Virus record (IMG/VR): IMGVR_UViG_3300045988_007823
DNA: 39,771 nt
Direction: 5' to 3' (one strand)
Source: a virus
The translations under genes and the position numbers were made by a program. Below, piece by piece: positions 6,695-9,408 of the stretch. How positions within the stretch are numbered: position 1 is the stretch's first letter; each line of letters starts with the position of its first letter. A model generated the notes under the pieces. The model had not been told where the DNA came from and searched no databases. It saw nothing but the letters and a program-made list of their open reading frames with translations.

Positions 6695-7249
6695 TCACTC
6701 AACGATACACTCGTAATACCGAACGAGCTTGTCATCGTCCGCGTCCTTATCGCAAAGGAATGCTTCGGCAAGGTCGGCGTAAAACTCCGTGTTGTTGACG
6801 TTGAATTTCTTTGCCACCTTGAAGTAGTCCGAGTACAGCATGTTCATGGCGACATAGAACTCCATCGGATCACAGTCTATTTTCTTCTGATCAAGAAGAT
6901 TCTTGGTCTGCTCGTAGCTCCAATGGGCGCCCCTGCTGCCGTCCTCATTCTCAAGGCCGCGCATCCACTCGTCCGCCATTTCGCGGGTCATGCGGTCGTA
7001 CCCTCCGGCATAGCCGCGGTCATACTCTCCGCCGTAGCTCTCGCCCATACGCGGCTCATAGGAAAATCCGATTCGGCGGCGGTCGTCGTAGTAGTCCGTG
7101 TATTCGTCGCGGTAGTCATTGCGTGGGGCATAGCGCCCGTTGTTGTAATGCTCGCGGCCTCGGCTGTCGCGGTATCTTTCCTGCGGCTCGTAGTCACGGT
7201 TATTCTGTATCTGGTAGTCTCGGATGCGTCTGATTCTGTCCGCTCTCAT
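6695..7249 (-). CDS. Hypothetical protein with an Arg/Asp/Tyr-rich low-complexity N-terminal half and a globular C-terminal domain.
   Basis: 184 aa. The N-terminus reads RDYQIQNNRDYEPQERYRDSRGREHYNNGRYAPRNDYRDEYTDYYDDRRR. The C-terminus reads ...CDPMEFYVAMNMLYSDYFKVAKKF.... ATGA overlap with the upstream gene. AGGAG RBS. Confidence 0.7.
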   Translation of the reverse strand: MRADRIRRIRDYQIQNNRDYEPQERYRDSRGREHYNNGRYAPRNDYRDEYTDYYDDRRRIGFSYEPRMGESYGGEYDRGYAGGYDRMTREMADEWMRGLENEDGSRGAHWSYEQTKNLLDQKKIDCDPMEFYVAMNMLYSDYFKVAKKFNVNNTEFYADLAEAFLCDKDADDDKLVRYYECIVE

Positions 7250-7635
7250 GTCGTAGCTCCTGTCTCCGCGTTAATGGCGGTAAGATCATTGCTCGGCGAG
7301 CAGCACGGTTTCCCGATCATTCGGAACGTGCCGCCCGTGGCGTTGGTGACTACAATCGTGCTGTACTTCGTCCGAGTCCGCACACCACACGCAGTTACGG
7401 GAGCGCAGCATCGATTCGTCAGCGGGAACTGCGCCGTTCCCGCGCCAATGGTGAACACAACCGGCGCGTTAATCGTCGCCGTCGTTGGGATGCTCTGTGC
7501 CAGAACGATGCAGTATTTTTCTCCGTTGGAATAGTTGCCATCTGGGAGATTGACAACAAGATTCCCGCCGGTAAACGTGATCGCTTGGCTAAGAATCAGC
7601 CTTTTGCAAAGCTGACAAACGGGTTTGCAAGCCAT
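7246..7635 (-). CDS. Cys-rich beta-type hypothetical protein, 129 aa with 10 Cys.
   Basis: MACKPVCQLCK...NRCCAPVTACG...GKPCCSP. The RBS GAAAGGAG lies upstream of the ATG. Confidence 0.7.
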   Translation of the reverse strand: MACKPVCQLCKRLILSQAITFTGGNLVVNLPDGNYSNGEKYCIVLAQSIPTTATINAPVVFTIGAGTAQFPLTNRCCAPVTACGVRTRTKYSTIVVTNATGGTFRMIGKPCCSPSNDLTAINAETGATT

Positions 7636-7650
7636 TATAAACTCCTTTCA

Positions 7651-7670
7651 GGGGCGGGATTTCCCGCCCC
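7651..7670 (-). promoter_or_regulatory. Stable intercistronic GC hairpin (GGGGCGGG-aaat-CCCGCCCC) with no T tract.
   Basis: A perfect 8-bp GC stem lies between the 236-aa and 129-aa genes. Confidence 0.4.
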
Positions 7671-7680
7671 GATCACATTT

Positions 7681-8391
7681 TCAGCACCCGCAGCAGGTGT
7701 TCTGGTTGCAGCAGTAAGGGTTCTGCACCTGATACGCAGGGACGGGGGACGGTCGCAGCGCATTGATGAGCGTCGCGTTCTGTGCGCTCTGCGAAGCGGC
7801 AAGCCGCAGCGCCTGATTGTCCGCCTCAAGGGTCTGGATCTTGCTCTGCGTGAGGAAGTCGAGGATAGCACGGGTTCCGGCGTTCTGGTTGTCCGTGATG
7901 TCACGGGCAACATTCTGGATGGTGTTCCGGGTATCGCACGCCTGCGTCGCCATGTCATATCGCACCTGTGCGATAGCCTGCCGGTTCTCGCAGCAGCAGT
8001 TCTGATTCTGCATCTGCATGGCGTTGAGCTGCTGCATGAGCGCCGCCTGCTGATTGCATCGGGCAAGCTCCGCCGCAGAGAAGCCGCTCGTCACGGCCTG
8101 CGTCACACCGGCAAAGCCGTTAAGCATTCCAGTGTTCATCGCGTAGAAGCCGTCACAAACGCCGTTGTTCACCGCGTCGATCTTGCGCTCAACGTTAGCA
8201 AAGTCGGAGGCAAGGACATAGCCATCGGTTACACCGCCGGAATTGCCGCCGCCGAAGCCATAGCCGCCGTTGCCCCATCCGAAAATCAGCGCAAAGATGA
8301 TGATAGCCCACCAACCGTCGCCGCCGAAAAGACCGCCTCGGTTATTGTCGCCCTGCCCGGCAAGAAAGCCGTTCATAAAATCGTCTGCCAT
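7681..8391 (-). CDS. Membrane protein with a Gly-rich N-terminus, one TM helix, a Gln/Asn-rich coiled coil, and CCC and CC..CCGC clusters.
   Basis: 236 aa. It contains GGDGWWAIIIFALIFGWGNGGYGFGGGNSGG, an internal NQNCCCENR, and the C-terminal NPYCCNQNTCCGC. Confidence 0.75.
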   Translation of the reverse strand: MADDFMNGFLAGQGDNNRGGLFGGDGWWAIIIFALIFGWGNGGYGFGGGNSGGVTDGYVLASDFANVERKIDAVNNGVCDGFYAMNTGMLNGFAGVTQAVTSGFSAAELARCNQQAALMQQLNAMQMQNQNCCCENRQAIAQVRYDMATQACDTRNTIQNVARDITDNQNAGTRAILDFLTQSKIQTLEADNQALRLAASQSAQNATLINALRPSPVPAYQVQNPYCCNQNTCCGC

Positions 8392-8400
8392 AGAAAAAAG

Positions 8401-8488
8401 CTCCTATCAGTTTATTTACATCCGGGCGCGCGCCTCCCGGCTGCATTCGAGAAGCGGCTTTTAATCAAGATGCCGGAACTGATAGGAG
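8401..8488 (-). promoter_or_regulatory. Long-range hairpin whose 3' arm contains the Shine-Dalgarno sequence of the 236-aa gene.
   Basis: On the minus strand CTCCTATCAG (complement of 8479-8488) pairs perfectly with CTGATAGGAG (complement of 8401-8410). CTTTTTTCT and the ATG at 8391 follow. Confidence 0.5.
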
Positions 8489-8493
8489 AATGT

Positions 8494-8715
8494 TTATTTA
8501 AGCCCAAGACTTTTGGCGATTTCCTCCACGGTCGTTCCGCGTTCTTTCGCCATGTTCTCCGCCATCTGCCGGAGCTGGTCGGGCGTCTTGCCCTGAACCA
8601 TCTTTAGCGCCTGTTGCGCTCGCGGATCGCGTCCAGCCATCTGCTGTATTAGCGTCATCTGGTTTCCGCCGGTACGGGCGAGGCTTATCAAATTGAAAAT
8701 AAGATTATTCATCAT
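8494..8715 (-). CDS. Small helical hypothetical protein, 73 aa.
   Basis: GGAGGG lies about 10 nt upstream of the ATG. It overlaps the upstream gene by 11 nt. Confidence 0.6.
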   Translation of the reverse strand: MMNNLIFNLISLARTGGNQMTLIQQMAGRDPRAQQALKMVQGKTPDQLRQMAENMAKERGTTVEEIAKSLGLK

Positions 8716-9058
8716 CGTCTTCTACCCTCCGGCGCTTTTTCGCTGTCAGCTCCGCCCGCAGAGCGTCAAGGTCGGCTTTCGTCGCGTACTCTACAGCCGG
8801 AGTTTGTTCCGGGGTGAAAAGCTTGAAATCAAAGAAGTCGGAAGCCCCTGTCTGCTGGTTAAAACGTTTCAGGTAGATCATGCCGTGCCCGATGTCCGGC
8901 ATTACGACGCCGAGAGAAAAGTAGTCCGTGCTTGTGGCAATAGCCTCTTCGCGGCTAGTGACCGGCTTGCAGACGTATCCGGGAGCAATCTGCTGCACGG
9001 GCTGCGGTCGCTGATATCCGCCGTAAAACTGCTGTGGCTGCTGGTAGTAGTTTTCCAT
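8705..9058 (-). CDS. Hypothetical protein with a Gln/Pro/Tyr-rich N-terminus (MENYYQQPQQFYGGYQRPQPVQQ...) and a basic/acidic tail.
   Basis: The start is set at ATG 9058. The longer ORF start at 9091 would lie inside the terminator hairpin. Confidence 0.65.
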   Translation of the reverse strand: MENYYQQPQQFYGGYQRPQPVQQIAPGYVCKPVTSREEAIATSTDYFSLGVVMPDIGHGMIYLKRFNQQTGASDFFDFKLFTPEQTPAVEYATKADLDALRAELTAKKRRRVEDDDE

Positions 9059-9090
9059 TTCTTCACGTCCTTTCTGCCCCCATTGTCGCA

Positions 9091-9124
9091 TAAAAAAAGA
9101 GGGCTAACCCATCGGTTAGCCCTC
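9091..9124 (-). terminator. Strong intrinsic terminator after the sigma-r4-like gene.
   Basis: On the minus strand GAGGGCTAACC-gatg-GGTTAGCCCTC is followed by TTTTTTT. Confidence 0.75.
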
Positions 9125-9144
9125 AATAATCCGTCAAAAACCCA

Positions 9145-9408
9145 TCATTCGATTGCAGCGGCGATCTTGTCCTTGATCGCCCGTATACGGCGCTCGACTT
9201 TCTCTGTGCCGTACAGTTCCGTATCCGTCTGCATGGCGAAAGAAATTTGCAAAACGCTCATGCCCTTTGCCCGCAGGCGGAAGATTTTTAATTCTTCGTC
9301 GGTAAAGCCGCAGTCCCGCTCAAACTGTTCGCGTAGCTCGCGCGGGAATTGCAGCTTAATCTTTGTCCCTGGCGTTGTTAAACTCCGTAGGAGGCTCTCT
9401 GTCGTCAT
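9145..9408 (-). CDS. Small sigma-70 region-4/LuxR-type HTH protein, 87 aa.
   Basis: FTDEELKIFRLRAKGMSVLQISFAMQ....VERRIRAIKDKI resembles sigma region 4 type HTH. A 50-aa ORF at 9356..9508 overlaps its 5' end in another frame, so the true N-terminus is uncertain. Confidence 0.6.
   Translation of the reverse strand: MTTESLLRSLTTPGTKIKLQFPRELREQFERDCGFTDEELKIFRLRAKGMSVLQISFAMQTDTELYGTEKVERRIRAIKDKIAAAIE

Follow-up and report, generated by a model that had tools for sequence, protein, structure and literature searches.

The IMG/VR virus record IMGVR_UViG_3300045988_007823, a stretch of 39,771 nucleotides (nt) referred to here as the window, carries a mobile, self-contained and strongly conserved gene cassette at the distal end of its late/lysis region. 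The cassette is read from the minus strand and consists of five genes (P2 to P6) with their own terminators, a structured RNA leader ahead of P4 and, as an optional companion, a small regulator-like gene (P1). The encoded protein families are catalogued only as unknowns (DUF or PHROG entries), the leader RNA appears in no catalogue, and no described system combines such elements. Searches by sequence and modelled structure linked none of the products to a known family of virion, lysis, replication, defence or spore proteins. We tentatively propose, with somewhat less than even confidence, that the cassette specifies a host-directed, membrane-anchored and cysteine-linked protein assembly, and that it is an accessory operon which spreads horizontally among tailed phages of gut Clostridia. 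The cassette is among the commoner unannotated gene sets of human and animal gut viromes.

A first-pass annotation of the sequence had placed six minus-strand open reading frames (ORFs) in this region. All six are present, and they are real genes, far beyond chance: P4 has at least 8000 relatives at 90% clustering, all named 'hypothetical protein' and many labelled Caudoviricetes, and P5 has 2023 relatives in a 5.8-billion-protein collection, none of them named. The annotation's view that P2 to P6 resemble no known virion, lysis or replication family held against Pfam, PHROGs, NCBIfam, PADLOC, the Protein Data Bank (PDB) and Foldseek, which returned either nothing or families of unknown function. 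Across P1 to P6, the sole Pfam assignment is the DUF7841 domain of P6, and NCBIfam and PADLOC gave no match (PADLOC at E up to 0.1). Family profiles of P2, P5 and P6 retrieved nothing under E 0.1 from all PDB sequences. A literature search on DUF7841, PF25223 and phrog_16490 found nothing relevant.

Co-occurrence was surveyed by scanning one genome per species and identifying homologues by tblastn. The resulting 74 loci bear out the suggestion that an undescribed, conserved multi-gene unit follows the lysis genes. Almost all belong to Oscillospiraceae, Ruminococcaceae, Lachnospiraceae and other Clostridia. Carriers include Acutalibacter, Pseudoflavonifractor and Colidextribacter as well as the cultured Anaerotruncus colihominis DSM 17241, Flintibacter muris DSM 110149 and Muriventricola aceti, and because cultured carriers exist, the function of the cassette is directly testable. 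In A. colihominis DSM 17241 it occupies roughly 1.677-1.680 Mb of NZ_CP102255.1. P4 lies directly upstream of P5 in 68 of the 74 loci, and homologues of P2, P3 and P6 occur in 29, 21 and 36 of them, respectively. Related loci likewise encode DUF7841 in their third gene. When the gene after P5 lacks this domain, it specifies another type of helical protein that contains an Arg/Ser/Tyr/Gly/Asp-rich stretch, for example SSYANRGQHYVRGHYSRD or YRYKxxGRFAPKGKG, the latter an echo of the GRYAP motif of P6. Because these stretches are comparable, the invariant core of the cassette is the putative membrane protein P4, the small beta protein P5 and a third protein with a low-complexity R/D/Y/G region.

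The gene order elsewhere runs from tail genes through a holin and lysin and a few small genes to P2-like, P3-like, P4, P5 and the third gene. The lysins near the cassette vary and include M23 with an XhlA-like protein, NlpC/P60 with a Dp1 holin, a PGRP amidase, and a C39-like peptidase with an r1t holin. A pooled Pfam scan of upstream ORFs recovered CHAP, Amidase_2/3, GH25 and M23 lysins and several holin families. The same scan of downstream ORFs found tyrosine integrases, serine recombinases, HTH_3 repressors and plain host genes. With lysis genes on one side and integrases, repressors or host genes on the other, the cassette forms the last part of the late operon, at the border of the prophage. 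Its presence after the holin/lysin in phages with M23, NlpC/P60, CHAP, Amidase_2/3, PGRP or GH25 lysins and differing backbones supports its mobility, and because it is conserved across unrelated backbones it must confer a general advantage in gut Clostridia. As a separate observation, sample 3300045988 contains dozens of 56-60-kb contigs (e.g. L092, L095, L105 and L140) with a near-identical cassette and leader. The genome of bajarodcaudo virus 5, described below, is of similar size. These contigs may represent an abundant phage lineage, possibly without an integrase.

P4 (7681-8391) is a protein of 236 amino acids (aa) whose N-terminus is rich in Gly and Asn (19 Gly in 60 aa). A single hydrophobic, transmembrane-like segment (mean Kyte-Doolittle value 2.1) lies between GWG and GGFGG. 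The protein has 11 Cys, including CCC at residues 132-134 and a C-terminal CCNQNTCCGC. The Gly-rich N-terminus, the single hydrophobic segment and the two Cys clusters had been read correctly in the first-pass annotation; the coiled coil described there was not borne out, as the Q/N-rich amphipathic helical region has a periodicity of 3.6 residues and a weak heptad signal. Residues 12-231 match phrog_16490, a family of unknown function, at E 1.8e-41. Identity across loci is 27-75%, and one P4 cluster occurs on 168 contigs. Among relatives, GWG and CCC are invariant, the GCGC-type terminal Gly/Cys tail and a QNANTRAILDFL region are highly conserved, and NGFxGVxxAxCxLGY-type repeats are present.

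Together, P4 and P5 form a lysis-adjacent pair that recalls the Rz/Rz1 spanins of phages of Gram-negative hosts. P4 has an N-terminal transmembrane-like segment, a long helical region and C-terminal Cys, and P5 is small with Cys. The cassette hosts are monoderm Clostridia, however, P5 has neither a signal peptide nor a lipobox, the two genes are neither embedded nor overlapped in the spanin manner, and there is no sequence similarity.

The predicted membrane anchor of P4, the location at the prophage end where accessory genes accumulate, and the autonomous regulatory signals described below would also suit superinfection exclusion or anti-phage defence at the membrane of a lysogen, an alternative that the first-pass annotation had raised and that has since gained no positive evidence. 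We regard it as improbable. No PADLOC family matches P1 to P6, and four of the five proteins are soluble and of low complexity, unlike known superinfection-exclusion (Sie) or abortive-infection (Abi) proteins. The cassette is furthermore present in a probably non-temperate phage, and the very high conservation of P5 would be unusual for arms-race genes.

P5 (7246-7635) is the best-conserved cassette protein, with 45-85% identity across loci and 349 clusters at 50% identity in an exhaustive search. It has the 129 aa and the beta-type fold expected from the first-pass annotation and 9 Cys instead of the 10 counted there. A first AlphaFold2 model on a shallow alignment was unusable (predicted local distance difference test score, pLDDT, 46.6). 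Repeated with 75 diverse relatives, the prediction reached a pLDDT of 80.9 and a predicted template modelling score of 0.71. The model is an eight-strand beta-sandwich (residues 13-106) flanked by disordered, Cys-bearing tails (1-12 and 108-129), the N-terminal one holding C3, C7 and C10. By sequence reading, the N-terminus MACKPVCQLCKRL contains no signal peptide and no lipobox.

The clear structural homology to tail proteins that had been named beforehand as speaking against an undescribed system was not found. Foldseek returned no PDB match for the P5 model at E <= 0.001. The best match was the Pa193 baseplate/tail-fibre chain (E 0.083, TM-score 0.41), with oligonucleotide/oligosaccharide-binding (OB) folds next. 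Against predicted viral structures (BFVD), the top matches were uncharacterised family members, followed by C-terminal tip domains of tail-fibre and collagen-repeat proteins (E 1e-4 to 1e-2, TM-score 0.45-0.55). We take this weak likeness to fibre tips, which comes from comparing models, as a resemblance of folds and not as demonstrated homology.

The Ena pilus subunits (DUF3992) were considered as a further relative. P5 shares with them the size of a ~130-aa beta-sandwich and a Cys-bearing N-terminal tail, the kind of tail through which Ena subunits become disulfide-linked. It differs in that none of 75 family members matches DUF3992 or any other Pfam model, in that no Ena appears among the 50 Foldseek PDB matches displayed, and in that only C10 and C42 are more than 90% conserved. 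An identity as an Ena/DUF3992 subunit was thus ruled out on the Pfam and structural results. Fusions to a P5 domain were also examined for hints of function and set aside; the longer matches are a mixed set (terminase, ROK, CHAP, integrase) that probably reflects chimeric gene calls. One BFVD entry stands by itself: A0A8S5LXP6 from CrAss-like virus sp. ctRQZ5 (294 aa), annotated as DUF7841, aligns with the P5 model over 92 columns with a TM-score of 0.55. If real, this would be a fusion of a P5-like and a DUF7841 protein and a functional link between the two.

P6 (6695-7249; 184 aa) has two parts. Its N-terminal half is Arg/Asp/Tyr/Gly-rich and disordered, with the motif RYRDSRGREHYNNGRYAPRN; residues 1-80 include 18 Arg, 13 Tyr and 10 Asp, as the Arg/Asp/Tyr-rich half originally described would lead one to expect. 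Residues 81-180 are a DUF7841 (PF25223) helical domain, matched at 103.8 bits against a cut-off of 25.2 (E 8.7e-30). P2 (8705-9058) has the 117 aa and the Gln/Pro/Tyr-rich character first assigned to it, the bias being located in residues 1-30. A conserved core of ~55 aa follows, with the pattern CRPVxSxEEA...MPDxxHGxIYxKRxNxxTG, and then a charged helical C-terminus. Its only PHROGs relative is a weak match to phrog_21718, a family of unknown function. A longer P2 ORF of 128 aa would begin at an ATG at 9091, inside the terminator T-tail/promoter and without a ribosome-binding site (RBS); the ATG at 9058 is preceded by AAAGGA, so 117 aa is the right length. P3 (8494-8715) is, as described, a small helical protein of 73 aa. 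It is Q/M/N-rich and ends in a conserved ...EEIAKxLGL(K), and Pfam gave sub-threshold Rho_N/HRDC-type matches only.

The five genes had been called tightly coupled. This holds for P2/P3 and P5/P6, which overlap by 11 and 4 nt, and not for P3-P4 and P4-P5, which are separated by 102 and 45 nt. The 102-nt P3-P4 spacer folds into a stable structure (minimum free energy -38.9 kcal/mol, z -3.4) that none of 200 shuffles equals. Three helices make up this leader (8399-8491, minus strand), defined by a covariance model and covariation; two of them are called RNA helix P1 and RNA helix P2 and are not to be confused with the proteins. RNA helix P1 (12 bp) pairs CUCCUAUCAGUU at 8488-8477 with AACUGAUAGGAG at 8412-8401, and its 3' arm holds the Shine-Dalgarno (SD) sequence of P4, GGAG, at 8404-8401. 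RNA helix P2 (4 bp, 8475-8472/8458-8455) closes a conserved 13-nt loop AUCUUGAUUAAAA at 8471-8459 (RUCUUGAnnAAAA). A GC hairpin (5 bp, 8440-8436/8426-8422) is followed by the conserved UGUAAAUAA (UGYRAAUA).

By sequence motif, this architecture precedes P4 in 31 of 62 genome loci. An SD that pairs with a partner more than 60 nt upstream is found in 35/62 P4 genes, compared with 4/27 P2 genes and 14/62 P5 genes. A blind 18-base DNA pattern taken from the conserved leader interior was also scanned over IMG/VR. It found 120 stretches, of which 80 were examined; in 62 of these a same-strand P4 homologue begins no more than 400 nt further downstream, and one additional stretch is truncated where its contig stops. 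A covariance model built from five same-register seed sequences and three helices gave 31 matches at E <= 0.01 in 1.09 Mb, one per locus and always just 5' of P4. The window contributes a single match (94.7 bits) and 30 other loci the remainder. The leader ranges over the window, L001-L073 and the IMG/VR loci L085-L204, and all 27 assessable loci positive for the model carry the five-gene (DUF7841) version of the cassette.

Covariation supports the helices. Standard pairs fill 95.4% of the cells of the leader alignment (shuffled 77.6%), 18 of 21 pairs show changes on both sides, and double changes occur in 101 cells (shuffled 27.6). The covariation score is 0.521 against 0.206 for shuffled alignments; none of 500 shuffles reaches it and slid controls attain at most 0.134, these figures being somewhat inflated because the alignment was fitted to the model. 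By eye, unambiguous arm pairs include GCGG/CCGC, CGGC/GCCG, GCAG/CUGC, GCCG/CGGC and ACGG/CCGU in RNA helix P2, and CCGGG/CCCGG, CCGAG/CUCGG, ACGGG/CCCGU, CGGAA/UUCCG and UCGGC/GCCGA in the GC hairpin. RNAalifold failed on a plain MAFFT alignment because the helix arms vary in length. A search of Rfam 15 returned only a chance-level mir-184 match (E 0.85, over 8390-8499). We conclude that the P4 leader is a well-supported cis-regulatory structured RNA at a fixed place 5' of P4, which masks the SD. Such an uncatalogued RNA offers an experimental handle on the cassette.

In its design the leader resembles SD-sequestering elements such as translational riboswitches, RNA thermometers and the long-range masking of the MS2 coat-replicase coupling. 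The P4 SD pairs with a strand ~75 nt upstream, and the leader has internal conserved loops and alternative hairpins. It differs from these in having no Rfam match and in a stem too stable for a thermometer. By eye, most sequences also permit another pairing, between the strand 3' of RNA helix P2 and the G-rich 5' arm of the GC hairpin, which hints at a possible switch. A P3-like ORF ends just upstream of the leader in 26 of the 31 loci, its stop codon lying 4-54 nt (median 15.5) from RNA helix P1. Given this distance, unmasking by a terminating ribosome is plausible in only about half of the loci.

The three-gene version of the cassette has a different arrangement. Six loci without P2, P3 and DUF7841 (L002, L007, L010, L012, L020 and L040) show a short perfect palindrome before P4 (e.g. 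ACATTATATCAGCGCTGATAATGT). The palindromic hairpin is followed by an TGTAAATAA motif common with the long leader and then by AAAGGAG. The palindrome is a candidate RNA hairpin, operator, or terminator plus promoter.

The strong terminator that had been reported after P1 was recovered between P1 and P2 (9124-9099, minus strand), with an 11-bp stem containing 7 G-C pairs and a T7 tail. A second terminator (6683-6662, minus strand) directly 3' of P6 closes the cassette. Elsewhere, of the 31 P6-bearing loci with a scannable flank, 19 have a terminator 1-24 nt 3' of the final cassette gene. On the upstream side, 18 of 65 loci, about half of those that contain P2, have one no more than 400 nt ahead of the first gene of the cassette. 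Downstream of the first terminator, a promoter-like TRTG-extended -10 element (TATGcGACAAT, 9082-9092, minus strand) was read from the sequence as a consensus-level match. The same succession of a terminator and TATGCGA(C/A/T)AAT or TATGCTACAAT is found in the window, L001, L004, L005 and L006. Other loci have TGGTATAAT or TGTATAAT at the corresponding site, likewise a match to consensus. A scan of the cassette region for sigma-70 -35/-10 sites counted no more than in shuffles. L015, L022, L027 and L069 carry a second long GC-rich hairpin (e.g. TCTCAGCGGCCAGGGGACGGGCGGTACACGTCCCGCCCAGCGTCCCCCGGTCCGCTGA) in the P2 leader, 3' of a TGTTATACT-type box; this, too, could be a structured 5' untranslated region.

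P1 (9145-9408, 87 aa) had been described as a sigma-region-4-type helix-turn-helix (HTH) protein. The window protein itself has no Pfam match. For the HTH part of the description, the family level gave a borderline result: a profile of the window protein and 7 homologues found Bacillus subtilis GerE (1FSE) as its best PDB match (residues 6-53, E 0.001), followed by LuxR-type DNA-binding domains (E 0.001-0.04). A homologue scored 18.9 bits against Pfam GerE (cut-off 23.5), and homologues also fell under the cut-off for Sigma70_r4_2. The pooled upstream scan contained three ORFs matching Sigma70_r4_2, two Sigma70_r4 and two GerE-type HTH, counts that may overlap. With 87 aa, and aligned only with region-4/LuxR-type HTH, P1 has no room for a region 2. 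From its sequence relationships, it is therefore best called a stand-alone LuxR/GerE-type HTH protein, of a superfamily shared with sigma region 4, and not a sigma factor. Homologues occupy the same position in 8 of the 74 loci.

Four loci (L023, L033, L037 and L059) show a P1-like HTH gene and terminator, then three direct TGATAG repeats (GTGATAGTTTTTTGATAGGAAATTGATAG) and a TGTATAAT/TGTATGAT box, all 5' of P2. The repeats are a candidate operator of the LuxR/GerE-type protein. TGATAG/TGATAA also occurs in a helix of the P4 leader and, where the cassette has three genes, in the palindromes that precede P4.

The GerE likeness of P1 bears on a spore-surface role, suggested in the first-pass annotation, which had likened the products to coat and exosporium proteins. 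Under this explanation the cassette would be switched on in the sporulating mother cell of lysogens by the GerE-like regulator, and its proteins would be built into the coat or exosporium. The GerE-controlled proteins of these layers (CotY/Z, ExsY, CotC/U, CotG, GerQ; CdeC in C. difficile) resemble the cassette products in amino-acid composition and in the lack of export signals. By inspection, none of the P1 to P6 translations has an N-terminal hydrophobic leader, and a hydrophobic segment is present in P4 alone. We take the Q-rich N-terminus of P2 to be comparable to GerQ and the R/D/Y-rich region of P6 to CotG/CotC; the Cys-rich P4 and P5 presumably parallel CotY/Z/ExsY/CdeC, and the Gly-rich N-terminus of P4 with its transmembrane-like segment YjcZ. 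A small stand-alone LuxR/GerE-type HTH near the cassette, with GerE at a borderline E of 0.001 as its best solved-structure match, would fit the same picture, as would host lineages that include Oscillospiraceae/Ruminococcaceae genera such as Anaerotruncus.

The searches gave this kinship no support. With E values up to 1 admitted, neither P1 to P6 nor 75 P5 relatives match a model of a coat, exosporium or Ena family (CotY/Z, ExsY, BclA, GerQ, YjcZ, CdeC and DUF3992/Ena included), the P5 model is unlike solved Ena or BclA structures, and no sequence or fold similarity links the cassette with the coat system, in which the transmembrane-like segment of P4 is a further difference. Sporulation sigma factors use a CATA-type -10 in B. 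subtilis. Read at the level of consensus, the cassette boxes are of the sigma-A extended -10 type and not of the sigma-E/K type. P1 is present in a minority of loci, and carriers of the cassette include a phage with no recognisable integrase as well as bins from lineages, Christensenellales among them, that are not known to form spores. Similarity of composition is weak evidence by itself, and we consider the spore-surface role quite unlikely. The same low standing applies to a broader version in which a riboregulated cassette, with a GerE-like regulator in some phages, installs Cys-, Tyr- and Gly-rich proteins in a host structure assembled from the cytoplasmic side, foremost the spore coat or exosporium, and in which the leader is a new class of translational switch. 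If true, the form in which the host is transmitted would have its surface or its resistance altered by the phage.

In the host-directed assembly that we favour, the single hydrophobic segment would fix P4, with its CCC cluster and Cys/Gly tail, in the host membrane. P5 is predicted most likely to dock on P4 via disulfides or shared metal sites. P6 or its analogue, together with P2 and P3, could supply low-complexity, condensate-prone or scaffold regions. The proteins would build a cross-linked assembly that alters a property of the infected or lysogenic cell. Expression may be controlled at three levels: by the optional HTH protein P1, by the terminator and the putative extended -10 promoter that follows it, and by the three-helix leader RNA, which hides the P4 RBS, so that P4, P5 and P6 would be translated only once the RNA has been opened.

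Such a cassette has much in common with morons and lysogenic-conversion cassettes. These lie at the lysin-attR end of Firmicutes prophages, as exemplified by the toxin/paratox genes of Streptococcus pyogenes and the immune-evasion cluster of Staphylococcus aureus. The cassette shares the position after the lysin, at the prophage end beside att and integrase, as well as the flanking terminator(s), the promoter-like site and the mosaic presence across unrelated backbones. Of the promoter and terminator that a moron has of its own, the terminators are confirmed and the promoter is a consensus-level extended -10 only. The cassette differs in that it has no homology to any known conversion gene, consists of five co-conserved genes and not one, encodes products without secretion signals, and also occurs in a phage without a recognisable integrase.

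Several findings weigh against the host-directed assembly or in favour of a late lytic function. The products could be a virion accessory, such as a fibre or adhesin with P4 as stalk and P5 as knob, or a lysis or post-lysis accessory made with the holin and lysin. The cassette lies immediately downstream of the lysis genes and always has the orientation of the late operon, so that it may simply be a late gene set. The complete circular 58-kb bajarodcaudo virus 5 carries it together with its own DNA polymerase and helicase. No integrase is annotated among the 107 features of this virus, which has a 397-aa candidate ORF without a Pfam match, and a role confined to lysogens is therefore doubtful. 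Many loci have no terminator before the cassette, and about ten show translational coupling of P2 to one more small ORF ahead of it, again without a terminator. The promoter is only a consensus match, the positive-inside rule applied to the charges of P4 gives no topology, and the P5 fold weakly resembles tail-fibre and collagen-protein tips and the Pa193 chain.

We nevertheless judge the late lytic function unlikely. The cassette moves independently of tail modules and lysin types and has its own terminator, promoter-like site and leader RNA. A strongly hydrophobic segment combined with long low-complexity regions would be unusual in fibres, and the structural similarity of P5 is under the level of homology. 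As for lysis, P2 to P6 have no Pfam or PHROG match to holin, antiholin, spanin or XhlA models, and the lipobox is missing from P5.

The genes around the cassette give the window the appearance of a temperate siphovirus genome, with the cassette placed between the lysis genes and attP/int. Upstream on the minus strand are a holin (Holin_LLH, 9546-9866) and an endolysin (GH25+CW_7, 10275-11111). Between them, a 128-aa ORF (9879-10265, minus strand) encodes a protein that begins with a hydrophobic N-terminal segment, is helical and charged in its C-terminal part and matches no Pfam family. By analogy with related phages, in which an XhlA-like protein holds a similar place, this protein may serve as an accessory in lysis.

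To the left of the cassette follow, nearest first, a convergent plus-strand gene pair, a tRNA-like 3' fragment and a tyrosine integrase (4602-5711) near an HTH_3 protein. The gene pair (6203-6672) encodes a 109-aa protein of no family (6203-6532) and a 62-aa ribbon-helix-helix protein resembling TacA/Arc/CopG (6484-6672), preceded by a good sigma-70-like promoter at 6130-6158. It may be an antitoxin-like or regulatory pair, and the hairpin that closes the cassette also ends this operon. The tRNA-like fragment beside the integrase (~5830-5893, plus strand) retains a long variable arm, T-arm, acceptor end and CCA and lacks the 5' half. ARAGORN found no complete tRNA there, and Rfam returned partial tRNA-like/tmRNA-3'-end matches only. 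It probably represents the core of attP, in which case the phage would use a tRNA (or tmRNA) gene as its integration site. A complete tRNA-Gln (CTG) is encoded at 22735-22808 on the minus strand, within the phage structural/early region.

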